Below are positions 24,468 to 60,909 of a stretch of 64,000 nucleotides of DNA, piece after piece (the stretch's first letter is position 1; each line of letters starts with the position of its first letter). A model generated the notes under the pieces. It had not been told where the DNA came from. It saw only the letters and a list, made by a program, of their open reading frames with translations, and did not search any database. The position numbers were made by a program, and so were the translations under genes. The stretch is from an uncultured Candidatus Saccharibacteria bacterium (GTDB taxonomy: Bacteria > Patescibacteriota > Minisyncoccia > Phycocordibacterales > Phycocordibacteraceae), in the NCBI GenBank assembly GCA_964550425.1, contig CAZJZB010000002.1:1626-65625 (forward strand), written 5' to 3'.

Positions 24468-24474
24468 TAGGCCT

Positions 24475-24870
24475 TTATTCTTGTTCAACGAGGGTATGAA
24501 GTGGTACCTCAAGACGAAAAGTATCTTTCTCATATTCATCTCCACCTCGCAATCCATCGATAAAGGTAATCCATAATGAGTCCTCAAGAGCAACAAACTC
24601 ATGCACTTCTCCCGGCTCGAACGTCAAAAGATCATAGGGTTGCCATAACGTTTTTACTATAGGTCCCTCATTATTTTTTCGAGAATACACGTCAAACTTT
24701 CCTTGTATTAAAAAATCATGCTGCCGGGACACGTTGTGGTAATGGTTGCCGCGTACACCACCTTTTTTGGTAAAGATGATGGTGCAATGTTCCTTGGGCT
24801 CTTTGACGAAGATGTCAGTGATGGTGCCGCGTGCATCTTCAAAATTAATGTTCTTGTGTTCAAGTTGCAT
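24475..24870 (-). CDS. cupin-fold sugar 3,4-ketoisomerase-like protein (FdtA/WxcM C-terminal domain type)
   Basis: RGNHYH (RGxHxH) motif, about 130 aa, cupin beta-barrel pattern. Confidence 0.6.
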   Translation of the reverse strand: MQLEHKNINFEDARGTITDIFVKEPKEHCTIIFTKKGGVRGNHYHNVSRQHDFLIQGKFDVYSRKNNEGPIVKTLWQPYDLLTFEPGEVHEFVALEDSLWITFIDGLRGGDEYEKDTFRLEVPLHTLVEQE

Positions 24871-24880
24871 GTGGATGCCA

Positions 24881-29446: not shown

Positions 29447-29454
29447 TTCTCGCA

Positions 29455-39325: not shown

Positions 39326-39405
39326 GACGTAAAAATGCAGTACGAGACACTATTGCATCGCCTCAGCGATTGTGCAAGGGTCAGAAACCCCGGGCGGTAT
39401 CTGTT

Positions 39406-39414
39406 TGTTATAAT
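39406..39414 (+). promoter_or_regulatory. putative extended -10 promoter element (TGTTATAAT) 16 nt upstream of the ATG at 39430
   Basis: Seen in the divergent intergenic region 39326-39429. No clear -35 element. Confidence 0.3.
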
Positions 39415-39429
39415 CTGCAAGCACTCGAA

Positions 39430-41337
39430 ATGGAAAAACGAGAAAACGAGATACATAAAAGAACCGTACTTTTTCTCTCCGAGATCGGTCACGTCTCCCA
39501 AGCAGAGAAATTCATAGCAGAGCATCCAGACCTCAAAACAGAGGGGTATATGATTGTGGCGCTTGATATTACTATCGAGTGGGAGCTCGCCCGCAAAGGG
39601 GTGCCCTACTCCTCGGGGAGAGAGTATCGCACCCATGACGCGAGCCCTCTGACTCTATCGGAAGAGTGGGTAACTGCTCTTTTTAAAGATACGAGATGGC
39701 AGTTCTTTTCGTATCGGGGAGTGTCGCTCTTGCGAGTGTATTTTTTCTCCCTCCAAACATATCTCACTCCGCTCCTTTATTACATAGATATTGTAACAAA
39801 TGTTCTCGCGCGGCATCCTTCCGTAACGCGTTGCATTGTGTTCCCCCCGCTTCGTTCTGCACCGCCCGCGGGTGACGATTTTATCCCGCAAGAAAAAGAC
39901 GTGCTTATGGACGCTGTTCGTGAGGTCGCCACACAGATAGGTAAAGAACTATTAGTGCCAGGGGGTATTCCCAATTTCGGCGCGCGCAATGGCTCAACAG
40001 TATTTGCATATAAACGTGCACTTTTCAGCGTCTGCATTAGTGTACTCAACATTCTGGTTGCGCTTGTGCGGCCCCCCAAGCACATAACGATCCTCGTAAG
40101 TGATTACTGGAGGAATCTTGCACCCTTACTTCCACATCTAAACGGGGCCGAAGTACTGCTCCTTGGCCGAATGGAGGCATTTAAGGCCGGATTTAAAAAT
40201 ATTTTTACTTACCGCATGCGCTTTCTGCACAGCGACTCGTTTGTTTCTCGGGATCCAACACAGCACAAAGATGTTCACTTTCTTTTTGAGCGCGAGTGGC
40301 GCTCTCTGCAAGCATCGGGTGCGGTACATTTACCAGAGTTTAAGGGAATATCGCTCAACCCTCTTTTCAGCAAGGTGCTTAACGCGTGTATTACGAACGT
40401 TCTCACAAAAACACTTGACACTATCGACAACATGCATGCGCTACTTGCGTCTTATAAACCCGACATAGTCCTCTTGCGCATATCAACGAGTCCTAACCAG
40501 GCACATTTTCCCGTCCTAGCTCAGGTTGCACGCGCACACGGTATACCATCGATTGAGATACAGCATGGATTGGGATATTACGGTCCCGGATCGTTAGATC
40601 TGCGGCATCTCGCCGAATACACGGGGGTCTATGGAACGCTCACTGCTCGCGAGATGAAACAGGTTGGGGATGACTATACAACACCAGTCATTATCGGCTC
40701 GCCGCGTTTTGATATATATACTCCCGTACCCCGCGCATCAGAAGAGAGAGATTCTCAAAGCACTGTATCGGTTGTCGTTATTGCACCACTGTCGCACCTC
40801 GGCATCTTAGACACATATGACGTTGAAGAGTATTTTCAAGAGGTAGCGTCGGCGCTCGAAAAAGTCAAAAACGTTACAGCTACTATCAAACTCCGTCCAG
40901 GATCAGGGGGAGTGTCGTTTTATGAACATATTATTGCAAGTGCTTTTGCGGGAGTGCCCCACCATATCGTGAGCGATGAGCCGCTCGTCGAACTATATAA
41001 AAAAACGGACATTGTGATCTCCGGCTACTCCACTGCCGCACTTGAGGCGCTAGCGTGCGGAAAGCCACTCATATATTTTGCGCTTTCTCCCGGGGAGCAG
41101 ATGATGGGGCTTCATCATTTTTCTCTATATGCAGAGCACCAGGCGATGCGTATTGCCACAACTAAAGAGCACCTTGAGGTGGCGCTTGCGGAGCTTGTGG
41201 CAGACTCACAAAAACGTGCAGAACTTGAGGATGGAGCGAAGGCGTTTATGAAAGAACAGTACCTTTTTGATGGCAAGTCAGGCGAGCGAGCTGCGGCGCT
41301 TATTGAGGTCCTTGCCAAAGGGAAGGGATCTCGTTGA
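39430..41337 (+). CDS. large soluble protein with TagB/TagF- or capsule-synthesis (KpsC/KpsS)-like C-terminal GT-B domain; candidate glycosyl/glycerophosphotransferase
   Basis: The C-terminus has IIGSPRFD and DIVISGYSTAALEALACGKPLIYF, reminiscent of the CDP-glycerol glycerophosphotransferase / capsule-synthesis family. The N-terminal half is unassigned. The track uses a TTG start at 39370. Confidence 0.45.
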   Translation: MEKRENEIHKRTVLFLSEIGHVSQAEKFIAEHPDLKTEGYMIVALDITIEWELARKGVPYSSGREYRTHDASPLTLSEEWVTALFKDTRWQFFSYRGVSLLRVYFFSLQTYLTPLLYYIDIVTNVLARHPSVTRCIVFPPLRSAPPAGDDFIPQEKDVLMDAVREVATQIGKELLVPGGIPNFGARNGSTVFAYKRALFSVCISVLNILVALVRPPKHITILVSDYWRNLAPLLPHLNGAEVLLLGRMEAFKAGFKNIFTYRMRFLHSDSFVSRDPTQHKDVHFLFEREWRSLQASGAVHLPEFKGISLNPLFSKVLNACITNVLTKTLDTIDNMHALLASYKPDIVLLRISTSPNQAHFPVLAQVARAHGIPSIEIQHGLGYYGPGSLDLRHLAEYTGVYGTLTAREMKQVGDDYTTPVIIGSPRFDIYTPVPRASEERDSQSTVSVVVIAPLSHLGILDTYDVEEYFQEVASALEKVKNVTATIKLRPGSGGVSFYEHIIASAFAGVPHHIVSDEPLVELYKKTDIVISGYSTAALEALACGKPLIYFALSPGEQMMGLHHFSLYAEHQAMRIATTKEHLEVALAELVADSQKRAELEDGAKAFMKEQYLFDGKSGERAAALIEVLAKGKGSR

Positions 41338-41360: not shown

Positions 41361-41717
41361 ATGGTGTCTATGAAGGTAACAGGTATAGGAGTTGATGTGG
41401 CCGATATTGCGCGATTTCGGACGTCGAAGATGCGCCGTAACGAGCGGTTCGTTCACAACATTTTTAGCAAAAACGAGCGGGACTACTGTTTTTCCTACCG
41501 CGACCCGGCACCGCATCTGGCGGGCGCCTTTGCGGCCAAAGAGGCGGTTCGCAAGGTCTACGGCGACGAACCGATACTGCTTGCCGATATTGAAGTACGT
41601 CATCGTCCATCAGGGAAGCCAGAGATTTGGATTAACGGCAGGCGTTCGCGCACTTTCCTCATCTCAATCTCACACAATTCCACTATGGCAATTGCAATCG
41701 CTCTCAAGCAATCATGA
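41361..41717 (+). CDS. acpS: holo-[acyl-carrier-protein] synthase (4'-phosphopantetheinyl transferase)
   Basis: GIGVDVADIARF and ISISHNSTMAIAIAL signatures, about 118 aa. Confidence 0.8.
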   Translation: MVSMKVTGIGVDVADIARFRTSKMRRNERFVHNIFSKNERDYCFSYRDPAPHLAGAFAAKEAVRKVYGDEPILLADIEVRHRPSGKPEIWINGRRSRTFLISISHNSTMAIAIALKQS

Positions 41718-42751
41718 AAAAATGCATCGTACTTGATCTGGATAACACACTCTGGGGAGGTGTCATTGGTGAAGACGGGTTCGACAACATCGCGCTGTCG
41801 CTCACACCACCCGGCGCGAGCTTCATCGCGTTCCAACAAGCACTTCGAGACCTTCATGACCGGGGAATCATTCTGGCCATTAACAGCAGCAATAATCCTG
41901 ACGATGCGCTACACGTGATACGCAACCACCCGAACATGATTCTCAAAGAGAATCATTTCGCCACACGGCGTATTAATTGGAACGACAAGGTTAAGAATAT
42001 GCGCGAACTTGCCACCGAGCTCAACATCGGCCTCGACTCGATGGTGTTTCTCGATGACAGTCCTCTTAATCGTGAGGCAATGCGTACTTTTTTGCCAGAA
42101 GTGGAGACGCCAGATTTGCCAGTCGACCCTTCAAAATATGTAAAGTTTCTCCATGCACTCCCTTATTTCGAGAATGAAGCCATCACTGACGAAGATAAAA
42201 TGCGTGGAAATTTATATGTTACGGAACGGCTTCGCAAAGAAACAGAGAAGCATTTCGAGAGCCGCGAAGCGTTTCTAAAAAGTTTGGGAATAGAACTCAC
42301 TATGTATGAAGACAATCCTTCATCGCTTGCGCGACTCGCGCAGCTCACCGAGAAGACGAATCAATTCAACGTAAAGAAACGGCCACTCCGTGAGGAAGAA
42401 ATTGAAGCGTACATGCGGGATAAGACACATGCAATATTCCACGCGCGCGCGATTGATCAATTTGGTGATCAGGGAATTATCGCCTTTGCGCTCGTGCGTA
42501 AAGAAAAAGAATTGTGGCATATCGAATCCCTGCTCATGAGTTGTCGAGTCATTGGGCGCAGCATTGAAGATGCTTTTATCGCAGCAATCGCACGAAGAGC
42601 CGAGAGTGAAGACGCTCACGACCTTGGTATCACCTTCGAGCCATCCGAGAAGAATGATCCTGCGCGCATAGCGGTCGAGCGTCTGTTTAAGGGAGCGCTG
42701 CGCGCTCCCGTGGTAGAATTCAAGACACCGGATTGGATCACGCTCGTATGA
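41714..42751 (+). CDS. HAD-superfamily subfamily IIIC / FkbH-like domain protein (candidate glyceryl-ACP forming enzyme)
   Basis: N-terminal CIVLDLDNTLWGGVIGEDG (FkbH/HAD-IIIC hallmark), HAD motifs and a C-terminal acyltransferase-like region. Confidence 0.7.
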   Translation: MKKCIVLDLDNTLWGGVIGEDGFDNIALSLTPPGASFIAFQQALRDLHDRGIILAINSSNNPDDALHVIRNHPNMILKENHFATRRINWNDKVKNMRELATELNIGLDSMVFLDDSPLNREAMRTFLPEVETPDLPVDPSKYVKFLHALPYFENEAITDEDKMRGNLYVTERLRKETEKHFESREAFLKSLGIELTMYEDNPSSLARLAQLTEKTNQFNVKKRPLREEEIEAYMRDKTHAIFHARAIDQFGDQGIIAFALVRKEKELWHIESLLMSCRVIGRSIEDAFIAAIARRAESEDAHDLGITFEPSEKNDPARIAVERLFKGALRAPVVEFKTPDWITLV

Positions 42752-42978
42752 AAGATTTCAACACGCTCGTAGCCGAGCATTTCAAGATAGCGGGAACGGC
42801 GATTAAAGATACCCTCAGTGCAAAGGATATCCCCGAGTGGGATTCCATGAATTATCTACTCTTCATTGCTGATGTTGAAAAAGCGTATGAGGTGTCATTC
42901 AGTATGGACGAAGTACTTGGCGCGCAAACACTTGGAGATATAAAAAAGGTGTTGCGCGCCAAATTAATCAATATATGA
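42733..42978 (+). CDS. acyl carrier protein (DltC/ACP-like, phosphopantetheine Ser in EWDSMNY)
   Basis: An 81-aa acidic helical protein with a DSM motif at the canonical ACP position. Confidence 0.7.
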   Translation: MDHARMKDFNTLVAEHFKIAGTAIKDTLSAKDIPEWDSMNYLLFIADVEKAYEVSFSMDEVLGAQTLGDIKKVLRAKLINI

Positions 42979-43400
42979 CGCCTGCTGATGACAGATCATT
43001 TATCTCTCTGCAAGTCGGTGACACATCCTCTTTTGAACGTCGTATCTCAGAGGACGATGTACGGGCATTTGCCGTACTTTCCGGCGACTATAACCCACTC
43101 CATATGGACGATGCATATGCTCGTTCCACGCCGTTTGGCGGTAGGGTTGTGCACGGTATGCTTCTCGCGGCTATGATCTCACGTCTGGTCGGAATGCAAT
43201 TGCCGGGGAAGCGGGCTCTCCTAATGAAAGAATCCCTTGAATTTAAAAAGCCGATACGTATCGGGGATATGGTGAAAGTTGAAGGAGCGGTTGTAAACGT
43301 GAGTATCGCGACGCATATCGTTGAGTTAGAGATACACATATATGCAGAGAGCATCATAGTTGTGACAGGGCATGTGCAGGTACAAGTGCGCGATGAATAA
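42975..43400 (+). CDS. MaoC-like (R)-specific hydratase/dehydratase (hotdog fold)
   Basis: LSGDYNPLHMD...VVHGML hotdog-fold signature. Confidence 0.75.
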   Translation: MTPADDRSFISLQVGDTSSFERRISEDDVRAFAVLSGDYNPLHMDDAYARSTPFGGRVVHGMLLAAMISRLVGMQLPGKRALLMKESLEFKKPIRIGDMVKVEGAVVNVSIATHIVELEIHIYAESIIVVTGHVQVQVRDE

Positions 43401-44118
43401 CATGAACACAGGCAACCATAGCAAATCTCTGGCGGTCGTTTCAGGCGGTACAGGATACCTCGGTACAGCCATAGCCACAGAACTGAAGAATGCAGGGTGG
43501 AGAGTGGTCTCGCTCTCAAAAAGCGCCTCAAAATCTAACGACGAAGTATATACGTGCGACATTGCGAATGAAAAAGATGTCCGTGAGGCGATAGCGAGCA
43601 TCACGAAAATCCATGGTCCTCTTTCAGCATGTATCCACGCAGCTTCACCGCCCTTAGAACGTATACCAATTCTTTCAGTTCCGACCGCATCGTTTGACGC
43701 GGCTCTTAACACGAATGCCCGTGCAGCGTTCCTTCTTGCGAGGGAGATGGCCGAACATATGGCGGAGAATGCTGTGTTTATTGGCATAACAACACACGCT
43801 ATTGAACCAGGCACGCTACAGCCGCACGGTGCCTATATACCGGCTAAATATGCACTCCGCGGATTTTTGCGGGCACTATCAGCAGAAACGAAAAAGTCCG
43901 GCATCCGCGTCTATGCCGTTGCGCCAGGATTTCTTCCTGGTGGATTGAATAAGGGTATACCCAAAACCATACAGGATTTTTTCGCACGTAAGAGCGGTAC
44001 CGACTCCGAATCACCAAAAGAGATTGCCACTCTCATACGAAGGCTATGCGTTGGCGATACCAAGTTTCCCCCCGGCTCTTCAATAGCTTTCCCCTCTCTC
44101 GTCGCCAGCCCTCTGTAG
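43372..44118 (+). CDS. SDR-family reductase (3-oxoacyl-ACP reductase-like)
   Basis: AVVSGGTGYLGTAIA and catalytic YIPAKYAL motifs. Start uncertain (MNNMNTG at about 43393 is possible). Confidence 0.7.
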   Translation: MCRYKCAMNNMNTGNHSKSLAVVSGGTGYLGTAIATELKNAGWRVVSLSKSASKSNDEVYTCDIANEKDVREAIASITKIHGPLSACIHAASPPLERIPILSVPTASFDAALNTNARAAFLLAREMAEHMAENAVFIGITTHAIEPGTLQPHGAYIPAKYALRGFLRALSAETKKSGIRVYAVAPGFLPGGLNKGIPKTIQDFFARKSGTDSESPKEIATLIRRLCVGDTKFPPGSSIAFPSLVASPL

Positions 44119-44216: not shown

Positions 44217-45239
44217 ATGGGTCTAAAACAGTTGAGCGGCAAGACAGTGCTTATTACCGGAGGCACCGGTTCTTTTGGCAAAAACTTTGCTAAACACATT
44301 CTCGCCAACTCGAAACTTAAAAAGTTGATTATTTTTTCTCGCGATGAATTGAAGCAGTTCCAAATGGAGGCAGAAATAAGTGATAAACGAGTGAGGTTTT
44401 TTATTGGCGATGTACGCGATCTCCCGCGGCTCGAGCGCGCCTTTGACGGGGTTGATGTTGTTATTCATGCCGCAGCGCTTAAACAAGTCCCAGCGCTTGA
44501 ATACAATCCATTTGAAGCGGTTAAGACGAATATTTTGGGAAGTCAAAATGTTATTGAGGCAGCACTTGATCAGCGCGTGCAGAAAGTCGTGCTTGTATCA
44601 ACTGATAAGGCAGCGATGCCAGTCAATCTCTATGGTTCCACCAAGCTCTGCGCAGAGAAACTTTTCATAGCAGGTAATGCCTACAGTGCTACCGGCGAGA
44701 CGTCCTTCAGTGTTGTTCGCTACGGAAATGTCATTGGCAGTCGCGGGAGTATCATCGATAAACTTATCTCCTTAAACAAAAGCGGACCGCATACGGTGCA
44801 CGTTACCGATGAGCGTATGACGCGTTTCTGGATAGACCTTGAGCAATCCTTCCGTATTGTCCTCTTTGCTCTCGAGCATATGGCGGGTGGAGAAATCTTC
44901 ATACCCAAGGCACCTGCGATGAAGATGACCGATCTCTTTGACATTCTTGCGCCCAAAGCCAAGCGCAGCGTCATTGGTATTCGTCCGGGAGAGAAGATCC
45001 ACGAAGTGCTTCTCACGAAGGAGGAGGCACGCCACGCACGAGAATTAAAAGAGTATTTCGTCGTTCTACCGGAGCACGCGAATTCTGAGAGACAACAGAA
45101 AGGTCTCCTCAAGCACCTTAAGAACGGCAAAGCACTTGAATCAGAATTTCATCTAACGAGCGATACCACTGACAATCGTTTGTCGCGCAAGACGCTCCTT
45201 CAGATAGTTGCGAATATGGAGAAGACCATAAAAAATTAA
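44217..45239 (+). CDS. UDP-N-acetylglucosamine 4,6-dehydratase, CapD/PseB/FnlA-like
   Basis: VLITGGTGSFGKNF, YGSTKLCAEKL, RYGNVIGSRGS and TRFWI signatures. Confidence 0.8.
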   Translation: MGLKQLSGKTVLITGGTGSFGKNFAKHILANSKLKKLIIFSRDELKQFQMEAEISDKRVRFFIGDVRDLPRLERAFDGVDVVIHAAALKQVPALEYNPFEAVKTNILGSQNVIEAALDQRVQKVVLVSTDKAAMPVNLYGSTKLCAEKLFIAGNAYSATGETSFSVVRYGNVIGSRGSIIDKLISLNKSGPHTVHVTDERMTRFWIDLEQSFRIVLFALEHMAGGEIFIPKAPAMKMTDLFDILAPKAKRSVIGIRPGEKIHEVLLTKEEARHARELKEYFVVLPEHANSERQQKGLLKHLKNGKALESEFHLTSDTTDNRLSRKTLLQIVANMEKTIKN

Positions 45240-46147
45240 TGGTCCCATACTCTACAGAGGACTTAAACGAGACCGACACTAAGTTGACCATAGCAGTGAA
45301 TGGTTCGCGCGGACTTCTCGGCTATACACTGCTCCGTACGCCAATGACAGGACGCGCTCCTATTGCACTTAGTGCAGACATACGCGACGCACAGGCAGTA
45401 TTCACGGAAATAGAAGCACTCAAGCCACAATTGGTAATTCATACGGCGGCAAAGACGGATGTTGCTGAGTGTGAGCGCAATCCTGAAGAAGCGAGAGCAG
45501 TGAATGTTGAGGGAACAAAAAATGTAGTAGATGCCGCACGCGCCGTTGGTGCACGTCTTATATACATATCAACAGCATCTGTATTTTCTGGGCGTGAAGG
45601 GAATTATAGAGAAAAGGATATTCCAGAGCCAATGAATGTGTATAATACAACAAAACGTGATGGAGAAGCCGCAGTATCGGCATATGAAAAAGGCATGATA
45701 CTTCGACTAAATCTTATAGGGATACATCCAGAGGGTTCGCGCGGAAAGAATTTTATGGAGTGGCTTGTTGATTCCGTCCGTGCGAATAATGATCTGACGT
45801 TATTCAACGACCAGTTTATTAATCCTCTCTCAAATTGGACGGTAGCCGCACGTATCAAAATGATAATTGAAAAAAACGTGCAAGAAAAAATCCTGCACAT
45901 CGGCAGTACAGACCGTTTATCTAAAGCAGAGATAGGGAAGTTGGTACTCGCACGATTCCAAAATTATTGCGGGAACGTAACGGAAAGAAGTATTGATAAC
46001 GTTGTCGACGGAGTAATTCGTCCGAAACAGATGTGGCTCAATGTAGATAAAGTTCTCGGGCATGAAATTACATTGCCAACACTTACAAGTGAGGTAGCGA
46101 CTATTCTTGAAAAATATAAGAAATCCGTGCTACATTCGGGCATATGA
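45239..46147 (+). CDS. NAD(P)-dependent sugar-nucleotide reductase/epimerase (RmlD-like fold)
   Basis: Rossmann N-terminus and YNTTKRDGE catalytic YxxxK. TAATG overlap with the dehydratase. Confidence 0.65.
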   Translation: MVPYSTEDLNETDTKLTIAVNGSRGLLGYTLLRTPMTGRAPIALSADIRDAQAVFTEIEALKPQLVIHTAAKTDVAECERNPEEARAVNVEGTKNVVDAARAVGARLIYISTASVFSGREGNYREKDIPEPMNVYNTTKRDGEAAVSAYEKGMILRLNLIGIHPEGSRGKNFMEWLVDSVRANNDLTLFNDQFINPLSNWTVAARIKMIIEKNVQEKILHIGSTDRLSKAEIGKLVLARFQNYCGNVTERSIDNVVDGVIRPKQMWLNVDKVLGHEITLPTLTSEVATILEKYKKSVLHSGI

Positions 46148-47865
46148 GGAAGAAAAACATTACTATTCTTGGAATTTCTTATAACTCAACGGCTGAAGCG
46201 GCAATAATCAAAAATGGCGTAGTAGTCTGCGCCATAGCCGAGGAACGTCTCAACAGGATAAAAAATTGGTATGGCATACCAAAGCGATCGATTGAGTGGG
46301 TACTCCAAGAAGCGGGTCTTACCATGAGTGATATTGATATAATCGCGACCCACGATGGGACGAATATAGAAGAAGACAGAAAACCTCTGTTTGAACGACA
46401 AGCCGAACTGATACGCGCATCAGAAACGATTGATAGCAAAAGAAAGGAAGCACAACTGAAAATATTGTGGGAGAAGTTCAAGCATGTTGAAGAGGTAATC
46501 CATCATCGACATGTTACGTACATCAAGGAACTAGAGTCATTTGGTCCGCCGGTGTACAGGGTTAGCCATCACACGGCGCATGCCGCAAGTGCGTATTTTA
46601 CGAGCGGGTGGGATAACTGCTATGTGTTAACCGCCGATGGATGGGGTAGTGACATGTCGAACGGATTGTACCAATGTCGCCAGGGCAAGCTGAAGGAAGT
46701 GAGCAATTCATCAATTATAGATTCACTCGGTTATTTTTACGGCAGTATTACCAAACATCTTGGATTCAAGCCACACAGGCACGAAGGCAAGGTGTTAGGA
46801 CTCTCTGGCCATGGCAACCCAAAGAAGTTGGAACTATTTTTTTCTAGAATGATCGGATTTGACCATACACGTAAGTCATTTCGGGGATTTATGGAGAATG
46901 GTTATTATGTACCTATTTTCGACAACCCGTGGCTCGCTGAAGCATTGCGCAACGAATCAAGAGAAGATATTGCGGCTGGAGCCCAACGAGTTCTCGAGGA
47001 TGTGATTCTTGAATATGTTAAAACAATGGTGCCGACGAAGAGTAAATTGTGCCTTGCGGGAGGAATTTTTGCTAACGTGCTACTAAACCAAAAAATCGCA
47101 TTACTACCGAAAATGGCAGAAATTTATGTGTATCCGAATATGGGCGATGGTGGACTTGCAGTGGGGAGCGCATTGTATGCATATTCACAATTAACTTCTC
47201 TGCGTCCAAAAGTTATTGACACCGTATACTGGGGGCCAGAATATTCGGCTAAAGACATAGAAAGTGTTTTGAAAAATAGCAATGTGTTATACAAAAAAAT
47301 TAAGAATATTGAAACGGTTACTGCTCGATTGCTAGCCGATGGACATGTCGTGGCGCGTTTCAACGGGAAAATGGAAAATGGTCCTCGTTCGTTAGGCAAC
47401 CGTTCGGTTCTCTACAGACCTGATGACCCATCGGTAAATGATTGGTTAAATAAAAAATTAAAGCGTACTGAATTTATGCCATTTGCACCGGTAACTCTTG
47501 TTGAACATGCTCGTGAGTGTTACCGAGGATGGAAGAAGTACGCTCGGCCGGCGACTTTCATGACCGTAACCTGTGATTGCACCAGAATTATGAAGAAAAT
47601 GTCTCCTGGAGTGGTGCACGTGGACGGCACGGCAAGACCGCAATATATAAGCCGCTCTCAAAATCAAAGTTGCTATAAGATTCTTAAAGAATTCTACAAA
47701 CGTACCGGGAATCCCAATCTAATCAATACTAGTTTCAATATGCACGAAGAACCGATCGTGTGTTCGCCATACGATGCGGTCAGAGCTTTTCTTGACTCGG
47801 ATCTGCCTTATCTTGCTATTGGAGATTATTTGGTTACTCCTAATGGTGCGGGTAAAAGTGCATGA
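46144..47865 (+). CDS. carbamoyltransferase (NodU/CmcH family)
   Basis: N-terminal ILGISYNSTAEAAI...HHTAHAASAYF and a C-terminal carbamoyltransferase domain, about 570 aa. Confidence 0.8.
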   Translation: MRKKNITILGISYNSTAEAAIIKNGVVVCAIAEERLNRIKNWYGIPKRSIEWVLQEAGLTMSDIDIIATHDGTNIEEDRKPLFERQAELIRASETIDSKRKEAQLKILWEKFKHVEEVIHHRHVTYIKELESFGPPVYRVSHHTAHAASAYFTSGWDNCYVLTADGWGSDMSNGLYQCRQGKLKEVSNSSIIDSLGYFYGSITKHLGFKPHRHEGKVLGLSGHGNPKKLELFFSRMIGFDHTRKSFRGFMENGYYVPIFDNPWLAEALRNESREDIAAGAQRVLEDVILEYVKTMVPTKSKLCLAGGIFANVLLNQKIALLPKMAEIYVYPNMGDGGLAVGSALYAYSQLTSLRPKVIDTVYWGPEYSAKDIESVLKNSNVLYKKIKNIETVTARLLADGHVVARFNGKMENGPRSLGNRSVLYRPDDPSVNDWLNKKLKRTEFMPFAPVTLVEHARECYRGWKKYARPATFMTVTCDCTRIMKKMSPGVVHVDGTARPQYISRSQNQSCYKILKEFYKRTGNPNLINTSFNMHEEPIVCSPYDAVRAFLDSDLPYLAIGDYLVTPNGAGKSA

Positions 47866-48545
47866 AAGTCTCTATCATCATTCGTGCATATAATTCCGAA
47901 ACAACACTTGCGCGGGCGATAGAGAGTGCTTTGCATCAGGACTTTCCTAGTGACCAGTATGAAGTGATTGTACTAGACGATGGTTCTACCGATGGCACCC
48001 AAACAGTTGCAAAACGTTTCGAAAAGGATAAACGCATACGCTATATTTTTCAAGAAAACAAAGGGCACATTGCAGCTGCAAACAGGGGATTTAAAGAAAG
48101 CCAAGGACTCTACGTTACCCTACTGGATGCAGACGACGAATTTCTCCCGACGCTACTTTCCACCATGATAGCTGAGTTTGAAAAAGATTCAGAAATTGAT
48201 TTGGTATATTCAGATTACAAAGAAGAATACAATGGTACGGAACGAGGCGTGAGGGTGAAGCATGTGTTAGAGACCACCGGAGCAGGAATCATATATCGTA
48301 AAGACCGTTTGGAAGAAGTCGGATTATGGAACAAGGATCTATTGTTTCCCGAATGCGACCTTATACTTCGTACCTCAAGCAGATGGAAATTCGCCTATGT
48401 ACCCGAACCGCTTTTCATATACCACAGAAGAACGAACAGTTTGACCGGTGATGGTACCTACGAGGAACGAGGAAGAGCGCAACTTATATCGCTACATCCT
48501 GATAAAATTGATGAGATCTCTCACATCCGCTCGTATGCACTATGA
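47862..48545 (+). CDS. GT2 glycosyltransferase
   Basis: Has VSIIIRAYNSE, VIVLDDGSTDGT and LDADDE (DxD) motifs. Confidence 0.8.
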   Translation: MKVSIIIRAYNSETTLARAIESALHQDFPSDQYEVIVLDDGSTDGTQTVAKRFEKDKRIRYIFQENKGHIAAANRGFKESQGLYVTLLDADDEFLPTLLSTMIAEFEKDSEIDLVYSDYKEEYNGTERGVRVKHVLETTGAGIIYRKDRLEEVGLWNKDLLFPECDLILRTSSRWKFAYVPEPLFIYHRRTNSLTGDGTYEERGRAQLISLHPDKIDEISHIRSYAL

Positions 48546-49678
48546 ATACACGACCATTACTAATTAACGAACGCATTATTGGTGCAGGCCACCCCACATT
48601 TGTTATTGCTGAAATATCGGGCAACCATCATCAGAAGTATGAAGAGGCCGAGACGCTCGTGCATGTAGCGAAGGATGCAGGCGCTGATGCAGTGAAACTT
48701 CAAACCTATACCGCCGATACAATCACACTCAATTCGGATAAAGAATATTTCAGAGTGAGCGGTAAAGATCAGCCGGATACATGGAAGGGAGAAACACTCT
48801 ACAATCTCTATACAACAGCCTATACGCCGTGGGAGTGGCAGCCGAAATTAAAAAAACTTGCTGACGACATCGGCATACTTCTCTTTTCCACTCCCTTTGA
48901 CGATACAGCAGTAGATTTTCTAGAGAAAGAGGTGGAAGTCAGTTTTTACAAAATCGCTTCGTATGAGGCAGTACATATTCCGCTACTGCGAAAAGTGGCC
49001 TCGACGGGGAAGCCGGTTATTATTTCAGTTGGTTTTGCTGACGAAGAAGAAATAGCGCTCGCTATAGAAACACTGAAGAATAATGGAGCGTCGGATGTGG
49101 TGGTTCTGCACTGCGTCACTACTTATTCGGATACGCCAAGATTTTTTAATATGAACCTTACGACTATTGATGACATCAGGAATCGTTTTAGCGTTGAAGC
49201 TGGTTTTTCTGACAATAACGCCGGCATTGTTGCGCCTATCATCGCCGCTGTGGTCCACAAGGCCGTTGCAGTAGAGAAACACATCACGCTCTCACGAGCT
49301 CTGGGAGGACCCGACGCGCGCTTCTCACTTCAGCCCGATGAACTGCGGGAGATGGTTACTCGTATACGGAAGGGCGAGAGAGAAGGAATCGAGGCAGCAC
49401 TTGAGGGTGTCGGGACTATGGCAGATGTTGCGGAAGTAAATGGGGTAGTGAACTATGGCCCGGCTTCACCACAAGAGGCGGAGAATAGAATATTCCGCCC
49501 CTCTATCTGGGTGAAGAAGGATATAAAAAAAGGCGAAACACTGACACTTGAAAATATCCGTGTCGCGCGACCCGCTCACGGGCTCGCACCAAAGTTCTTT
49601 GATGACGTACTTGGTACCGTAGCCACGCGCGATATCGAGGCGGCCACTCCTTTTTCGTGGGATCTAGTGTCTACATAG
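48542..49678 (+). CDS. nonulosonic acid synthase (NeuB/PseI/LegI family) with C-terminal SAF domain
   Basis: Has FVIAEISGNHHQ and TIM-barrel NeuB motifs, plus a C-terminal SAF/antifreeze-like domain. Confidence 0.85.
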   Translation: MNTRPLLINERIIGAGHPTFVIAEISGNHHQKYEEAETLVHVAKDAGADAVKLQTYTADTITLNSDKEYFRVSGKDQPDTWKGETLYNLYTTAYTPWEWQPKLKKLADDIGILLFSTPFDDTAVDFLEKEVEVSFYKIASYEAVHIPLLRKVASTGKPVIISVGFADEEEIALAIETLKNNGASDVVVLHCVTTYSDTPRFFNMNLTTIDDIRNRFSVEAGFSDNNAGIVAPIIAAVVHKAVAVEKHITLSRALGGPDARFSLQPDELREMVTRIRKGEREGIEAALEGVGTMADVAEVNGVVNYGPASPQEAENRIFRPSIWVKKDIKKGETLTLENIRVARPAHGLAPKFFDDVLGTVATRDIEAATPFSWDLVST

Positions 49679-49682
49679 AGCT

Positions 49683-50306
49683 ATGGAACAACTCATCGGA
49701 ATACTCAATTACGGTCTTGGTAACTTAAGTTCGATTTCTCACGCACTTACATCACTTGGCGTTGCTCACGAAATACTCACGTCTCCTAATGCCCTGACGC
49801 GGGTGAGTCATATCATCCTACCGGGCGTTGGGTCATTTAAAGAGGGAATGGCCGGTCTAGAACGTGCAGGCTTTATAGAGCCATTGCGTCAAGCGGTGTT
49901 AATCGGAAAAAAACCACTCCTCGGTATCTGTCTCGGTATGCAGTTACTAGCCGACGTAGGACTCGAGCATGGCGAGCACGCTGGGCTCTCTTTTCTAGCT
50001 GGTCGTGTCGAGCGCATACCCGCGGAAGTACACAAATTACCCCTGCCACACATAGGGTGGAATTCCGTACATTTCTCAGAAGGAAAAAGAATAACAAGAG
50101 GATTGACGCAAGATACTGACTTCTACTTTGTGCACAGTTATCATTTTCTTCCTACTGAAGAAGAAGTTATTGCTGGTGTCACTGAATATGGTATTCAGAT
50201 TGCCGCGATCGTGGAGAAGGGCAATATATTTGGTACGCAATTTCACCCTGAGAAGAGCGGCGAGGAAGGCCTCAAGATTCTTAAGAATTTCTCAGAAATA
50301 GTATAA
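49683..50306 (+). CDS. glutamine amidotransferase, HisH-like (WbuY-type)
   Basis: IGILNYGLGNL, GICLGMQLL (catalytic Cys) and HSYHF triad residues. Confidence 0.8.
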   Translation: MEQLIGILNYGLGNLSSISHALTSLGVAHEILTSPNALTRVSHIILPGVGSFKEGMAGLERAGFIEPLRQAVLIGKKPLLGICLGMQLLADVGLEHGEHAGLSFLAGRVERIPAEVHKLPLPHIGWNSVHFSEGKRITRGLTQDTDFYFVHSYHFLPTEEEVIAGVTEYGIQIAAIVEKGNIFGTQFHPEKSGEEGLKILKNFSEIV

Positions 50307-50308
50307 GT

Positions 50309-51127
50309 ATGCTTAAGCCCCGTCTCATACCCGTCCTCCTTTTTAAAAACGGCGTTCTGGTGCGCAGTCAGCATTTCGATTTCTTTCAATCGACCGGCGA
50401 TCCTATAGGACAGGTGGAGCGATTTACACAGTGGAAAGCAGATGAGCTTATCTATCTTGATATTTCGCGCGTTGATATCTACAACGCGCAGGGAACGATG
50501 CAAAATATTGGCTCCACGACCTCGGGCAAGGATACCGGCGCAGCTGCCTCTCACAATTTTATTGAAGTGATACAGGCCGTCGCTCAGAAATGCTTCGTAC
50601 CGCTTACGGTGGGCGGCAAGATACGCACGATAGACGATATCCGGGTACGTCTCAAAAGCGGGGCGGATAAAGTCAGCATTAACAGCATGGCGTTTGAGAA
50701 TCCGGCCTTTATTACTGAAGCGGCACAGGTCTTCGGCAGCCAATGCATCGTCGTCTCTATCGACGTACGGAAATCAGTGAATGGATGGGACGTATATTCG
50801 CACAACGGAGAACGCGCGACTGGACGACAGGCAGTAGCGTGGGCTGTCGAGGCCGCCGAACGTGGAGCAGGCGAGATACTGCTTGGTTCTATAGATTGTG
50901 ATGGAGCGGGAGACGGGTATGACACTGAACTCATAAACGCGGTCGCACACGCCGTTGCAGTGCCAGTTATCGCGCTTGGTGGAGTAGGCACGTTCGAACA
51001 CTTTGTAGAAGGGCTCCATGCGGGTGCAAGCGCGGTCGCTGCCGCTAACATATTCCACTTCACCGAACAAAGCATCATTAATGCGAAACGCTACCTGCAA
51101 CACTCCGGCGTTGCTGTGAGATTATAG
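50309..51127 (+). CDS. imidazole-glycerol-phosphate synthase cyclase-like subunit, HisF-like (WbuZ-type)
   Basis: LIPVLLFKNGVLVRS and LTVGGKIRT (HisF TIM barrel). Confidence 0.8.
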   Translation: MLKPRLIPVLLFKNGVLVRSQHFDFFQSTGDPIGQVERFTQWKADELIYLDISRVDIYNAQGTMQNIGSTTSGKDTGAAASHNFIEVIQAVAQKCFVPLTVGGKIRTIDDIRVRLKSGADKVSINSMAFENPAFITEAAQVFGSQCIVVSIDVRKSVNGWDVYSHNGERATGRQAVAWAVEAAERGAGEILLGSIDCDGAGDGYDTELINAVAHAVAVPVIALGGVGTFEHFVEGLHAGASAVAAANIFHFTEQSIINAKRYLQHSGVAVRL

Positions 51128-51147
51128 AGGGGAGTATACTCACGCAT

Positions 51148-52374
51148 ATGACCCGCGCCTCTCCAGAGTTACGTCCGTCAGACATGCCGGCAATGATCTA
51201 TTGCACGCGTTGCACCTACCCAATTATCGCGGTCAATTTAACGATTGGAACGAATGGCGTCTGCAGCGGTTGTCGCGTACATGACGAAAAGGAGGCACTC
51301 GACTGGTCCGCACGCGAGGAAGAATTTAAAAAGCTGCTGTACTCATATCGCACAGACGGCAAGAACTACGATTGCATCATTCCTGTATCCGGCGGCAAGG
51401 ACAGCCATTTTCAGGTTTGGTATATCAAGGAAAAGCTCGGGTTGAATCCGCTTCTCGTGACGTATTACACGCACAACTACACTCCTACCGCTGAGGCAAA
51501 TTTACGCAATATAAGCAAGCATTTTGGCGTCGACCATTATATTTTTACGCCGAGTTACAAGATGATTCAGAAAATGAATCTTGCCGGTTTCGAAATGATG
51601 GGTGACATGAGTTGGCACTTCCATGCTGGCGTGAATACCTTGCCGTTCCAAATGGCAGTGAAGTTCAATGTGCCTCTTGTCATCTACGGCGAGCATGGAT
51701 TTATGGATTTAGCAGGACAATTCCAATTTGCCGATCGGCCGGAGTTTACGGCGCGTTACCGCAAAGAGCATCAGCTGCGCGGATATGATTGGCAAGATTT
51801 TATCGGCAAAGAAGGCCTTACCGAAAAAGACCTACTATGGGCGCAATACCCCTCAGATAAAGAAATAGCTCAAGTGGGGGTGCGCGGTATTTATATGGGT
51901 GTCTATGTCTACTGGGATGCTAACAAGCATGGTAAAAAAGTAGAAGAAGAATTTGGATTTAAACCCAATCCCGAGCCATTTGAGCGCACCTATCGCCGCG
52001 CATCAAATGTGGACGACATCCATGAGAACGGCATCAAGGACTATCTGAAATTTGTTAAGTTCGGCTACGGCCGAGGGACCGACCACACCGCAAAAGATAT
52101 TCGCCTTGGCAGTATGACCCGCGACGAGGGCATCAAGCTCGTGCGCCAGTATGATGCTGTCGTCCCGCGCAAATCACTCGAACATTTCTTGACGATGACC
52201 GGTATGAGTGAAGAAGAGTTTTGGCCGATTACCGACTCCTTCCATGATCCGCGGGTGTGGTGGATACGGGGCGGGGAGTGGTGGAAAGATACACTATGGG
52301 GGACTCCGGAGCCATTTGGCAAGGTCCATTTGTCTCCCGATAAGCAAAAAATGTATCGTCACGTCATAACATAG
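51148..52374 (+). CDS. N-acetyl sugar amidotransferase (WbuX/PseA-like PP-loop ATP pyrophosphatase)
   Basis: Has an N-terminal Cys cluster CTRCTYP...CSGC and the PP-loop motif IPVSGGKDS. It is co-located with the HisH/HisF-like pair. Confidence 0.75.
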   Translation: MTRASPELRPSDMPAMIYCTRCTYPIIAVNLTIGTNGVCSGCRVHDEKEALDWSAREEEFKKLLYSYRTDGKNYDCIIPVSGGKDSHFQVWYIKEKLGLNPLLVTYYTHNYTPTAEANLRNISKHFGVDHYIFTPSYKMIQKMNLAGFEMMGDMSWHFHAGVNTLPFQMAVKFNVPLVIYGEHGFMDLAGQFQFADRPEFTARYRKEHQLRGYDWQDFIGKEGLTEKDLLWAQYPSDKEIAQVGVRGIYMGVYVYWDANKHGKKVEEEFGFKPNPEPFERTYRRASNVDDIHENGIKDYLKFVKFGYGRGTDHTAKDIRLGSMTRDEGIKLVRQYDAVVPRKSLEHFLTMTGMSEEEFWPITDSFHDPRVWWIRGGEWWKDTLWGTPEPFGKVHLSPDKQKMYRHVIT

Positions 52375-52375
52375 T

Positions 52376-53056
52376 ATGAATCAGGCACCGATTGTACTCG
52401 TTATTATTCCCATCAAGGAACGCTCAACGCGATTGCCAGGGAAGAATCTCAAAGACCTCTGCGGTAAACCAATGATGGCGTATCCGATTGAGGCGGCAAA
52501 AGGTGCGAAGGGAGTGAGTCGTGTCATCGTCACCACAGAATCAGAGAAGATAAAAGAAATAGCGCTCAAGTACGGAGCGGAGGTACCTTTTTTGCGGCCA
52601 ATGGAGCTCACGGAAGATGCAGTGACTTCACAGCAGGTGTTAGTGCATGCGCTCGATGAGCTCAAGAAACTTGAGGACTACGAACCCGACTATGTACTCC
52701 TCCTTTATCCGACCTCGCCACTTCTCTCGCGAGAGAGAATAGAGCAGGCTATCGCACTCGCCATTGAGAAGAATGCTGATTCAGTTATCAGCGGCCATTA
52801 TGACAAAGGGCATTACTGGCTACCCGAAGGCGATGCATGGAAACGTCTCTACCCGACTAAGCTAGTGAACAGCCAGTACCAGAGGCCTCTTTTTGTAGAA
52901 AATGGGGCCCTCTATATGACACGTGCTTCTATTGTGCGCACTCAGATAGTCGCCAACCAGGCACAAGTGCTTTTGATGAAGCCAGATGAAAACGTGGATG
53001 TGGATTATCCCGAAGATTTCATAAAAGCGGAGTCGATGCTTAAGAACGGGGCATAG
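52376..53056 (+). CDS. CMP-nonulosonic acid synthetase (acylneuraminate cytidylyltransferase family)
   Basis: VLVIIPIKERSTRLPGKNL N-terminus of the CTP_transf_3 family. Confidence 0.8.
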   Translation: MNQAPIVLVIIPIKERSTRLPGKNLKDLCGKPMMAYPIEAAKGAKGVSRVIVTTESEKIKEIALKYGAEVPFLRPMELTEDAVTSQQVLVHALDELKKLEDYEPDYVLLLYPTSPLLSRERIEQAIALAIEKNADSVISGHYDKGHYWLPEGDAWKRLYPTKLVNSQYQRPLFVENGALYMTRASIVRTQIVANQAQVLLMKPDENVDVDYPEDFIKAESMLKNGA

Positions 53057-54883: not shown

Positions 54884-55975
54884 ATGGATAGGAGACAGTA
54901 TCTCACGATAACCGCTGGCATCATGATGTCAGCATTTCTGTTTGTGCCGATAATGGAATTTGTTGATGCCAATGATTACAACATACTTTCTACCGACCCC
55001 ACGACAGGGCTCTATCGATATATACAAAATAGCTCATTCAGGACGACAAGCGATTGTTATGAAAATACGGTAGTAGTCAATAACCTGGGTTTCCACGGAC
55101 CTCAAGTGTCTCCCGAAAAAGGGAAGAACACATTCAGGATTATCTTGATAGGAAGTTCATATGTTTCGGCAATACAAGTTCCTGTAGAAGCTATGTTTTC
55201 AAGGATTCTTGAGGAAAAACTTAATGCTGATCCCAGTCGTCCCTACACCTACGAGGTGATTCCAATCGCGATTGGCGGGCAGAGCAAAATGCTTCTTGAT
55301 ATATTTTATTACCTCAAGTACGGCTCCGTGCTCAATCCCGATCTCGTCATTGATGTTGAGAGTGGTAATGAACTGATTGATGAACACACGATCGATACGT
55401 CCGTTCTAGATGCGCAGGGAAATATCGTGGTACAAACCCCTAAAGGTAGTGAAAGCAAAACAGTCGCCTTTGTTCGTGCAGTAAGTCGAAACTCCAAGTT
55501 TCTTGTAAACCTCTACAATCGAACCCTCATATTTAAGAGCAATCTAGAATCCTTCTTTTCCGCACCATTTGCATCAACAGCACCTCCTCCTCTCGTACCG
55601 GATTCCATTATGGCAAAAAAACATGCAGAAGCAGAACAAGTACTCTGGCAAAACAAAGAAAAAATGTTAAGCACTTTTGCAAAGTATGTAGAAAAAGATG
55701 GCGCGCAATTCCTATATGCGTCATGGACTGGTTCGTGGGTAGCAACTGGAACGGCTGCAGAATTCCCCCAGTATGGGCAGAAAATTGCCGAACGGAATAA
55801 TTTTCATTATGTTGACCTCGTACCGGTGTTCCAATCAGAAGAAGCGGCATCTGGCAGACAAGGTACCTATACGTGTGATACTCACTGGAATAGTGAAGGT
55901 AATCGTTATAGTGCCGACGCTTTCTTTCTATACCTCACGGATCATCCTGTGTTGTTGTCTAGAAAATCACTATGA
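54884..55975 (+). CDS. DltD/AlgJ/AlgX-like SGNH-type protein (polysaccharide O-acyl transfer accessory)
   Basis: Has an N-terminal TM anchor and the CDTHWN motif (the DxHW of AlgJ/AlgX/DltD). Confidence 0.65.
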   Translation: MDRRQYLTITAGIMMSAFLFVPIMEFVDANDYNILSTDPTTGLYRYIQNSSFRTTSDCYENTVVVNNLGFHGPQVSPEKGKNTFRIILIGSSYVSAIQVPVEAMFSRILEEKLNADPSRPYTYEVIPIAIGGQSKMLLDIFYYLKYGSVLNPDLVIDVESGNELIDEHTIDTSVLDAQGNIVVQTPKGSESKTVAFVRAVSRNSKFLVNLYNRTLIFKSNLESFFSAPFASTAPPPLVPDSIMAKKHAEAEQVLWQNKEKMLSTFAKYVEKDGAQFLYASWTGSWVATGTAAEFPQYGQKIAERNNFHYVDLVPVFQSEEAASGRQGTYTCDTHWNSEGNRYSADAFFLYLTDHPVLLSRKSL

Positions 55976-57450: not shown

Positions 57451-57509
57451 GCGGATCGGTTTGTTTGCAAGAATGTGCTATAATTTCTTGTGATATGCAG
57501 TCAGGAGAT

Positions 57510-60777: not shown

Positions 60778-60909
60778 CCACACTCTGCAATTTTTTGTCA
60801 CACAAAGTTTTTATACGCGCGATAATGATACGTAGAAACGTTTGTGCATGACATATTTCAGGCACAGACGGGTCGACATATCAACCACGATTTCTAATTT
60901 GCAACCACC

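Follow-up and report, generated by a model that had tools for sequence, protein, structure and literature searches.

FkbH/OzmB enzymes take 1,3-bisphosphoglycerate (1,3-BPG), form a glyceryl-S-enzyme and pass the glyceryl group to an acyl carrier protein (ACP), giving glyceryl-ACP (PMC9057759), and in FkbH loading modules the net reaction converts 1,3-BPG and ACP to D-lactate-ACP (PMC7901079). Glyceroyl and lactyl groups are also found on bacterial sugars. Tannerella forsythia carries an N-glyceroyl group on a derivative of pseudaminic acid (Pse), Pse5Am7Gra, and the modifying genes were described as unknown (PMC5378307). Pse5(R-lactyl)7Ac occurs in Psychrobacter marincola and N-(R)-2-hydroxypropionyl-perosamine in Vibrio cholerae O144, with no genes assigned for either group (PMC7281560). 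Campylobacter jejuni makes di-O-methylglyceroyl-Pse, and an FkbH-domain gene, cj1302, lies in its flagellin glycosylation locus (PMC7099621). Beyond this single remark on cj1302, we found nothing in the open-access literature on FkbH in a pseudaminic-acid pathway, nothing that gives cj1302 a function, and nothing that joins FkbH to MBOAT or Dlt proteins. In MBOAT-SGNH systems, the tyrosine of an FxYxxF 'acyl shuttle' motif carries the acyl group in DltX and PatA, and the PatA/PatB- and AlgI/AlgJ/AlgX-type systems use acetyl-CoA as donor and are stated to have no carrier protein (PMC12148441). Here we describe a 64,000-nt stretch of DNA (the window) from an uncultured Candidatus Saccharibacteria bacterium (contig CAZJZB010000002.1, positions 1,626 to 65,625), in which a five-gene cassette built on an FkbH-type enzyme and a small carrier protein is set in a glycan locus. 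We read this operon as making a three-carbon 2-hydroxyacyl group on a private carrier, which decorates the glycan of the surrounding locus and is delivered via an MBOAT-SGNH pair. Taken whole, we give this reading an even chance.

The five genes at 41361-44118 on the plus strand form one translationally coupled operon (Table 1). As claimed in the original prediction, which was made from the sequence before any database search, they are co-directional, have overlapping ends and begin with AcpS at 41361. ATGA start-stop overlaps were found at three junctions, AcpS/FkbH, FkbH/carrier and carrier/MaoC. The short-chain dehydrogenase/reductase (SDR) has candidate starts at 43372, 43393 and 43402, and begins either 8 nt ahead of the MaoC stop or 2 nt beyond it. 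Scanning 38.5-58 kb for promoters and terminators gave counts equal to the shuffle expectation. Hidden Markov model searches bore out the predicted gene identities, with a marginal score for the carrier, whose single sequence falls just below the Pfam PP-binding gathering score of 20.8 bits. A profile built from 25 carrier homologues matches 129 solved ACP sequences (E up to 1), with 2lml as the best match (7e-22). The motif serine is invariant and the tryptophan 98% conserved in 55 sequences. The serine motif predicted earlier thus stands, but the predicted length of 81 aa, which requires a TTG start at 42733, does not: the carrier most likely starts at ATG 42748, in agreement with the gene call on the 78-kb source contig. 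Judging from its domain assignment, AcpS would convert this dedicated carrier to the holo form. No AMP-binding (DltA-type adenylating) enzyme was found in the cassette or the window, and FkbH would take that role.

The FkbH match to TIGR01686 spans residues 2-324 and lies well over the curated cut-off of 146.65 bits. Residues D8, D10, T12, S58, K92, D114, D115 and C277 are each 100% conserved among 81 homologues from bacteria and archaea, so the Asp/Cys arrangement of FkbH enzymes is present. Cys277 is the sole invariant cysteine in this alignment and for that reason is taken as the putative equivalent of the OzmB acylation site. PDB 3slr matches the HAD half of the protein. The AlphaFold2 model shows an N-terminal HAD domain followed by a confidently predicted C-terminal acyltransferase half of GNAT fold, in which C277 is located. 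In the sequence, Cys277 stands immediately before an R-x-x-G-x-S loop that resembles the GNAT pantetheine-binding motif. The nearest homologues are 60-91% identical, all about 345 aa long, and come from Paceibacterota/Parcubacteria metagenome bins. The source organism is a bacterium of the candidate phyla radiation, of Paceibacterota type. The wider family comprises 5,555 representatives of 50%-identity clusters at E <= 1e-30. Most members have about 560-630 aa, including additional N-terminal sequence, and a few form part of giant synthases, as domains in proteins of 2,500-5,700 aa. The short form found in the window is essentially a Patescibacteria speciality.

The dehydratase carries the hydratase-2 catalytic motif D-x-N-P-L-H as DYNPLH, which aligns to DFNPLH of its closest solved relative, PhaJ 1iq6 (2e-25). 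The closest solved relatives of the SDR are acetoacetyl-CoA reductases and FabG (about 1e-17), and its translation shows a YxxxK motif. In the proposed route, AcpS would phosphopantetheinylate the 76-aa carrier. Following the OzmB/FkbH mechanism, FkbH would form glyceryl-S-Cys277 from 1,3-BPG, its HAD domain would dephosphorylate, and its GNAT-fold domain would pass glycerate to the carrier. Since a glyceryl-thioester is a 3-hydroxyacyl thioester, removal of its 3-hydroxyl by the PhaJ-like dehydratase would give 2-hydroxyacryloyl-carrier, which would tautomerise to pyruvoyl-carrier. A two-electron reduction by the SDR, whether at the keto group or at the double bond, would then lead to lactyl-carrier, by analogy with FkbH loading modules that end in D-lactyl-ACP. 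The tailoring pair of dehydratase and reductase points to a lactyl rather than a glyceroyl or methoxy product. We consider it likely that a glycerate-derived acyl-carrier is made here for glycan decoration; that the end product is lactyl is possible, at a little under an even chance.

Table 1. Positions of the cassette, the MBOAT-SGNH pair and the neighbouring glycan features in the window.
Feature	Length (aa)	Position	Strand	Evidence and remarks
AcpS-type 4'-phosphopantetheinyl transferase	118	41361..41717	+	PF01648 52.9 bits; TIGR00556 60 bits; 118 aa also in source-contig gene call
FkbH-type bifunctional enzyme	345	41714..42751	+	TIGR01686 296 bits; TIGR01681 (HAD-IIIC) 76 bits
Dedicated acyl carrier protein	76	42748..42978	+	PP-binding 20.7 bits; E-W-D-S-M motif with phosphopantetheine-attachment Ser
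MaoC/PhaJ-type (R)-specific 3-hydroxyacyl-thioester dehydratase	141	42975..43400	+	PF01575 (MaoC_dehydratas) 83 bits
Short-chain dehydrogenase/reductase (SDR)	238-248, by start chosen	43372..44118	+	adh_short_C2 96 bits; adh_short 68 bits
Membrane-anchored SGNH-fold protein	363	54884..55975	+	AlphaFold2 fold; ATGA-coupled to downstream MBOAT
DltB-like MBOAT	492	55972..57450	+	PF03062 67 bits; C-terminal FIYFQF
TagB/Glyphos_transf-like glycosyltransferase	655	39370..41337	+	Directly upstream of AcpS; C-terminus weakly matches BFO_1060 family (8e-7), TIGR04396
Nonulosonic-acid module		44217..53056	+	PseB, RmlD-like reductase, carbamoyltransferase, GT2, PseI, HisH, HisF/WbuZ, WbuX amidotransferase, PseF-like cytidylyltransferase

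The solved relatives of the tailoring pair would also suit an acyl group that is not derived from glycerate. MaoC, SDR and carrier could form a PhaJ/PhaB/FabG-type pathway to a short 3-hydroxyacyl group, for example 3-hydroxybutyryl, with the FkbH-like protein acting as a phosphatase only or as an acyltransferase for another substrate. Eight related loci do contain KASIII-type condensing enzymes, often alongside MaoC, SDR and a second carrier, and 3-hydroxybutyryl is a frequent N-acyl group on such sugars. The window and its close relatives, however, have no condensing enzyme or malonyl transferase, so a builder of the C4 chain is missing. FkbH and carrier form the invariant core of the related cassettes, and MaoC occurs without KASIII in 31 loci in the tabulation of output enzymes. 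The catalytic cysteine and all HAD residues of FkbH are invariant, as expected for glyceryl transfer. An acyl group of this other origin is improbable in our view.

The cassette was compared with its 82 nearest relatives, of which 80 come from a one-genome-per-species scan (38-70% identity) and two are metagenomic loci. Many bacterial phyla are represented among the scanned loci, as are 12 bins of archaea (from Nitrososphaeria, DPANN lineages, Methanosarcinales and Promethearchaeota, the last two with one bin each). The carrier gene adjoins FkbH in 62 of the 82 loci; MaoC is found in 25, AcpS in 19 and SDR in 17. Glycan-type neighbours (GT2, GT4, epimerases, DegT, Bac_transf and deacetylases) are present in 67/82 loci, and a ketosynthase match in 0/82, with no modular polyketide synthase (PKS). 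The cassette is therefore a general glycan-acylation module, neither polyketide-type nor specific to nonulosonic acids, and the constant link to PKS rather than glycan genes in relatives, which would have refuted the original prediction, was not seen. Co-occurrence with neuB and CMP-synthetase genes, which was proposed as a check at the same time, holds for close relatives: wherever enough flanking contig is available (loci L001, L003, L083, L084, L085, L167 and L168), the cassette is always inside a NeuB/cytidylyltransferase/PseB-like locus. It does not hold for the wider family, in which a NeuB/PseI gene is found at only 8/82 loci. Loci of the close Paceibacterota clade often include a carbamoyltransferase and usually have a TagB-like transferase just upstream of the cassette.

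The composition of these loci also bears on a polyketide role. The cassette could supply a hydroxymalonyl- or methoxymalonyl-ACP extender, or a glyceryl unit for a tetronate, to a polyketide or nonribosomal pathway elsewhere in the genome, which is the only experimentally established type of role for FkbH-ACP pairs. FkbH homologues at 35-39% identity in a plasmid collection lie within PKS/tetronate clusters (Methylosinus pOB3b3 and a Ralstonia megaplasmid), and the giant-synthase members of the family point the same way. On the other side, neither the cassette nor its neighbourhood encodes a homologue of FkbK (3-hydroxyacyl-CoA dehydrogenase), FkbI (acyl-CoA dehydrogenase) or FkbG (O-methyltransferase), the 64-kb window and the 82 loci are free of ketosynthases, and the genomes of Patescibacteria are small, with no PKS on any related contig examined. 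The absence of a polyketide or fatty-acid synthase from the window had been correctly noted in the original prediction. Its methoxymalonyl-like oxidation and O-methylation steps find no genes here, and we rejected the methoxymalonyl/hydroxymalonyl route. A polyketide or nonribosomal destination is very improbable. The plasmid-borne homologues, all of which are in PKS/tetronate clusters, were set aside as models for the glycan type.

Some related cassettes differ in their tailoring genes. In L084, a 319-aa methyltransferase (11035-11994) is inserted between FkbH and carrier and may yield an O-methylated acyl group. The loci L007-L011, L019 and L022, from Nitrososphaeria/Thaumarchaeota (ammonia-oxidising archaea), and L020, from a bacterial Acidiferrobacteraceae bin, have the arrangement FkbH-ACP-MaoC(-AcpS), with FkbH in its long form and no adjacent SDR. 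These archaeal-type cassettes often stand beside a divergent LbH acyltransferase and a DUF3473 polysaccharide deacetylase, and in L022 an MBOAT lies directly upstream of FkbH. A cassette with the dehydratase only would give a pyruvoyl-type thioester, which is matched by no known glycan substituent.

When the neighbours were clustered across the 82 loci, no genes proved as closely tied to the FkbH-carrier core as those for acyltransferases, and generic glycan genes seldom adjoined it. A DltB-like MBOAT is present in 14 loci, in 13 of them within two genes of the core, and always co-directional. PF02522 (AAC(3)-like) N-acyltransferases (NAT) occur in seven loci (six directly adjacent to the core), LbH acyltransferases in 21 (eight adjacent) and KASIII-like enzymes in eight (five adjacent). 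Within five genes of the core, these output types are mutually exclusive: MBOAT only in 13 loci, LbH only in 8, NAT only in 7, KASIII with or without LbH in 8, and none identified in 46. We take these enzymes to be alternatives that all draw on one and the same acyl-carrier and deliver its acyl group. Where the neighbour is AAC(3)-like, the acyl-carrier probably serves to N-acylate a nonulosonic-acid precursor. A rule by which the presence of an aminotransferase entails a NAT was dropped, as L001 has a NAT and no DegT gene in view.

The output type in the window is a DltB-like MBOAT with an SGNH-fold partner, a pair that the original prediction overlooked and that, in related genomes, has orthologues joined to the cassette operon. 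We regard it as the likeliest taker of the acyl group, since neither a cytoplasmic N-acyltransferase nor a sugar aminotransferase is encoded in the window. The MBOAT scores 159 bits against TIGR04091 (DltB), below the cut-off of 375, and its closest solved relatives are DltB 8jem and 6bug (about 1e-30). His324 is invariant and the C-terminal FxYxxF is conserved. For the SGNH protein the sequence-level evidence is weak, with no Pfam match above threshold and ALGX at E 0.003 only. Its AlphaFold2 model has an N-terminal membrane helix and an SGNH fold, and TesA 4jgg (TMt 0.80), GDSL esterases and PatB 7tjb are among the matches; G90 and S92 (Gly-x-Ser) and H334 are invariant. The MBOAT is a candidate acceptor of the acyl-carrier thioester and the SGNH protein a candidate final acyltransferase outside the membrane. 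Together they would move the acyl group across the membrane, via the tyrosine of FIYFQF, onto a hydroxyl of the exported glycan. The whole would amount to a Dlt-like pathway, with FkbH in place of DltA and a hydroxy-acid in place of D-alanine.

Orthologues of the pair immediately follow the cassette in L167, L168, L170 and L171, four out of six related contigs from Patescibacteria. The order in L167 is AcpS-FkbH-ACP-MaoC-SDR-[347 aa]-MBOAT, followed by nonulosonic-acid genes and an ABC exporter; its FkbH, upstream glycosyltransferase, MBOAT and SGNH protein are 78%, 79%, 58% and 42% identical to those of the window. L168 has the same order without the SDR, and the window's SGNH protein is likewise 42% identical to the protein between cassette and MBOAT there. 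L170 is arranged as L167, plus a second carrier next to a PF02522 gene, and in L171, which has a long-form FkbH, the MBOAT directly follows the SDR. An MBOAT also comes right after the SDR in L004, L006 and L086, with whose MBOATs that of the window groups in a neighbour-joining tree. The split arrangement of the window is shared by its nearest relative, L083 (a 27.8-kb contig; FkbH 87% and SGNH protein 86% identical), and is a rearrangement relative to the cassette-fused relatives. Delivery by the MBOAT-SGNH pair in this genome comes close to an even chance, with the balance slightly on the side of doubt.

Two further arrangements were seen among MBOAT-containing loci. In L170 (14050-17136), the MBOAT-SGNH output is accompanied by a second carrier and an SDR beside a PF02522 acyltransferase and a DUF4910/DUF2172 protein. 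In the metagenomic loci L137, L141, L142 and L145, an MBOAT related to that of the window has a carrier of the same W-D-S family immediately upstream and no FkbH within reach, which hints at more carrier-dependent MBOAT systems with other loading enzymes.

The cassette may alternatively serve a cytoplasmic route, in which the acyl-carrier N- or O-acylates a pseudaminic-type nonulosonic acid or a nucleotide-sugar precursor and the MBOAT-SGNH pair is an unrelated O-acetyltransferase using acetyl-CoA. The constant placement of the cassette inside NeuB/cytidylyltransferase/PseB-like loci in close relatives would suit such a route. So would the PF02522 AAC(3)-family gene directly flanking the cassette in L001, L002, L003, L013, L017, L018, L084 and L085, the occurrence of MBOAT orthologues with no cassette nearby in L166 and L169, and the position of cj1302 within a flagellin glycosylation locus. 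N-glyceroyl and N-(R)-lactyl pseudaminic acids, moreover, are known structures that have no assigned genes. The window itself lacks the enzymes that this route demands. Pfam and tblastn searches of the 64 kb found neither an aminotransferase (DegT or class-III) that could supply a free amine nor a GNAT, LbH, FemAB-like or AAC(3)-like/PF02522 acyltransferase, so the acyltransferase would have to be encoded outside. An AAC(3)-like output was rejected for the window after tblastn with the L001 and L084 proteins gave no match; searches for KASIII, formyltransferase and Epimerase_2 were likewise empty. PseB is coupled instead to an RmlD-like reductase. NAT and MBOAT outputs are never found together at one cassette in the 82 loci, and only the MBOAT type is present in this stretch. 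The transfer to an amino sugar suggested earlier thus has no candidate enzyme in the window, and we consider the cytoplasmic route unlikely, if still a serious contender.

Several observations weigh against a lactyl group delivered by the MBOAT-SGNH pair. The pair lies 10.8 kb downstream of the SDR end, behind the nonulosonic-acid and ABC genes. The closest MBOAT orthologues on long contigs, in L166 (75%) and L169 (63%), have the order ABC-SGNH-MBOAT with no FkbH or carrier gene within 10 kb. Among 80 metagenomic MBOATs that are 33-54% identical to that of the window, one, the top match, is linked to a cassette and four more have a neighbouring carrier gene; the other 75 have no carrier gene within reach. 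MBOAT identity by itself thus does not predict cassette linkage, which lowered our confidence, and in most cases this type of MBOAT has no need of a cassette, its donor presumably being acetyl-CoA, as for PatA. The known MBOATs with a fused FxYxxF tail use acyl-CoA (PMC12148441). The grouping in the neighbour-joining tree has no bootstrap and may mirror taxonomy. On the chemical side, MaoC and SDR have as their closest solved relatives the PhaJ/PhaB pair, which belongs to 3-hydroxybutyryl chemistry. No SDR adjoins MaoC in 21 loci, of which 19 lack KASIII, nor in L168, and this fits a lactyl product poorly unless the reductase is encoded elsewhere. No characterised FkbH-like protein from a glycan locus was found in the searchable literature, and we infer the substrate and product of the window's enzyme.

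The cassette lies, as originally described, between methyltransferase-rich sugar genes and a nonulosonic-acid module. Upstream are rmlBACD, sugar C-methyltransferases and then the TagB-like glycosyltransferase. Downstream follow the nonulosonic-acid module, an ABC exporter, the SGNH protein, the MBOAT, a Wzy_C/TPR protein, MurB and SecA. BFO_1060/Tanf_01245, to which the C-terminus of the TagB-like protein is weakly similar, are transferases for pseudaminic and legionaminic acid derivatives in Tannerella (PMC5420450), and by this similarity the TagB-like protein is a candidate transferase for the nonulosonic acid. The first 490 or so residues of this protein have no family match. Proteins of this kind (620-655 aa) also precede AcpS in L001 (7745-9640), L083 (5429-7306) and L167 (1838-3715, the 79% identical glycosyltransferase mentioned above). 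In the nonulosonic-acid module, PseB (440 bits, cut-off 407.75), PseI (376.9 bits, cut-off 340.25) and WbuX (343 bits, cut-off 203.2) are clear matches. The PseF-like cytidylyltransferase scores 138.6 bits against TIGR03584, below the cut-off of 205.7, and 76.7 bits against PF02348. The other genes of the module were assigned from Pfam matches. The carbamoyltransferase is of the NodU type, the GT2 is small, and the coupling of PseB to the RmlD-like reductase is translational, by a one-base overlap. No PseC aminotransferase or PseH N-acetyltransferase is present in the 64 kb, and no PseG-like gene turned up, although no PseG-specific search was made; these genes could lie outside the window. 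Since PseB and PseI are present while these three were not seen, and since the RmlD-like reductase is coupled to PseB and the carbamoyltransferase follows, the module suggests a nonulosonic acid of the 7-hydroxy (3,5,9-trideoxy) type that bears a 5-acetamidino group as well as O-linked carbamoyl or acyl substituents, and not the classical 5,7-diamino pseudaminic acid.

Further features of the glycan locus were observed. Six consecutive GT4 genes followed by a GT47 (exostosin-like) gene, co-directional and mostly overlapping, occupy 9419-17086. Further on, at 17083-26122 and 37385-38629, come three methyltransferases of FkbM type, of which one is matched only weakly, and two TylC3-like C-methyltransferases for sugars. 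The FkbM-type enzymes had been placed near the cassette; they do occur, at a distance of 17-24 kb. The product of the locus seems to be a long heteroglycan with heavy methylation. L166, L169 and L171 also keep the gene order MBOAT, Wzy_C/TPR protein (about 720-765 aa), MurB and SecA (57447-63617 in the window), and the O-antigen-ligase-like Wzy_C/TPR protein may attach the finished glycan to its final acceptor. On the minus strand at 28451-30246, a 387-aa open reading frame (ORF) for an epimerase/dehydratase shares about 160 nt with a 263-aa fragment of UDP-glucose dehydrogenase (its N-terminal and central parts), and a 501-aa plus-strand ORF without a family match overlaps the two; a frameshift, a gene fusion or a wrong ORF call could account for this. 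At 2177-3931, a 584-aa MurD-like Mur ligase with N-terminal, middle and C-terminal domains is fused to a C-terminal VanY/Peptidase_M15 D-Ala-D-Ala carboxypeptidase domain, a fusion that unusually combines the making and the trimming of peptidoglycan. The stretch 6114-9379, which separates the Mur ligase genes from the glycan locus, encodes a coupling protein of TrwB/TraG type and a surface protein with lamin-tail and PKD domains.

Antigenicity is shaped by the glyceroyl and lactyl groups that pseudaminic acid and other bacterial sugars bear, and the cassette offers a concrete candidate gene set for such decorations, with predicted mass shifts of the carrier of +88, then +70, then +72 Da. To our knowledge, a route from a carrier to an MBOAT has so far been described only for D-alanine on teichoic acids. 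At least 13 of the 82 loci, from unrelated phyla, and four further Patescibacteria contigs place an MBOAT inside the AcpS-FkbH-ACP operon, which contradicts the generalisation that non-Dlt MBOAT-SGNH systems for polymer acylation have no carrier protein (PMC12148441). More broadly, and rather doubtfully, FkbH-carrier cassettes may be the loading half of a widespread, so far unrecognised Dlt-like pathway in Patescibacteria, many other bacterial phyla and several archaeal lineages, in which glycerate or lactate derived from glycolysis would pass to an MBOAT with a fused shuttle tyrosine and an SGNH protein and esterify an extracytoplasmic glycopolymer. If this is true, the pathway would be a second kind of carrier-protein-dependent MBOAT-SGNH system after D-alanylation, and genes would be assigned for the first time to the glyceroyl and lactyl groups of bacterial glycans. 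As far as we know, bacteria of the candidate phyla radiation (CPR) are generally reported to lack fatty-acid synthesis. The cassette would explain why they retain AcpS and ACP, and it suggests that their surface glycan is elaborate and acylated, which may be of importance to an episymbiotic way of life.

Compared with known systems, the cassette is best described as an FkbH-ACP module, free-standing with a dehydratase and a reductase, that serves a glycan and not a polyketide and is probably coupled to a Dlt-like MBOAT-SGNH transfer system. FkbH/OzmB with FkbJ/OzmE, from methoxymalonyl-ACP and tetronate biosynthesis, are alike in family, size (345 aa here, 366 aa in OzmB), HAD motifs, catalytic cysteine and adjoining small ACP. 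Unlike those systems, the window has no FkbK, FkbI, FkbG or PKS consumer; it has MaoC and SDR, a glycan context and a CPR host. The domain order of BryA-type loading modules is DH-KR-FkbH-ACP. These D-lactyl loading modules of trans-AT PKSs (bryostatin BryA type) combine the same set of activities as the cassette, FkbH, carrier, dehydratase and reductase (PMC7901079). In the window, however, the four are free-standing proteins, the single hot-dog MaoC/PhaJ protein and the classical SDR are analogous and not homologous to the PKS dehydratase and ketoreductase, and the predicted product goes to a glycan rather than a polyketide.

Dlt D-alanylation resembles the system of the window in its small carrier with a loader of its own, its DltB-related MBOAT, its SGNH partner with an N-terminal helix and its FxYxxF tyrosine, and lactate is the hydroxy analogue of the alanine used there. 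The loader of the window, in contrast, is FkbH and not the adenylating DltA, and the FxYxxF is fused to the MBOAT C-terminus, as in PatA and AlgI, and is not on a DltX microprotein. The pair is about 11 kb away from the cassette, and its carrier dependence is only predicted. The O-acetylation systems PatA/PatB and AlgI/AlgJ/AlgX share the fused C-terminal FxYxxF, the separate SGNH protein and the location in a cell-envelope polymer locus; unlike theirs, pairs orthologous to that of the window sit within an AcpS-FkbH-ACP operon in several genomes. Compared with the organisms that make glyceroyl or lactyl nonulosonic acids (T. forsythia Pse5Am7Gra, C. jejuni di-O-methylglyceroyl-Pse and P. marincola Pse5(R-Lac)7Ac), the window has no aminotransferase and no N-acyltransferase for an N-linked acyl group. 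It does carry the other genes that one would look for in a maker of such sugars: PseB and PseI, a cytidylyltransferase, the acetamidino machinery of WbuX, HisH and HisF, and a glycerate-type cassette.

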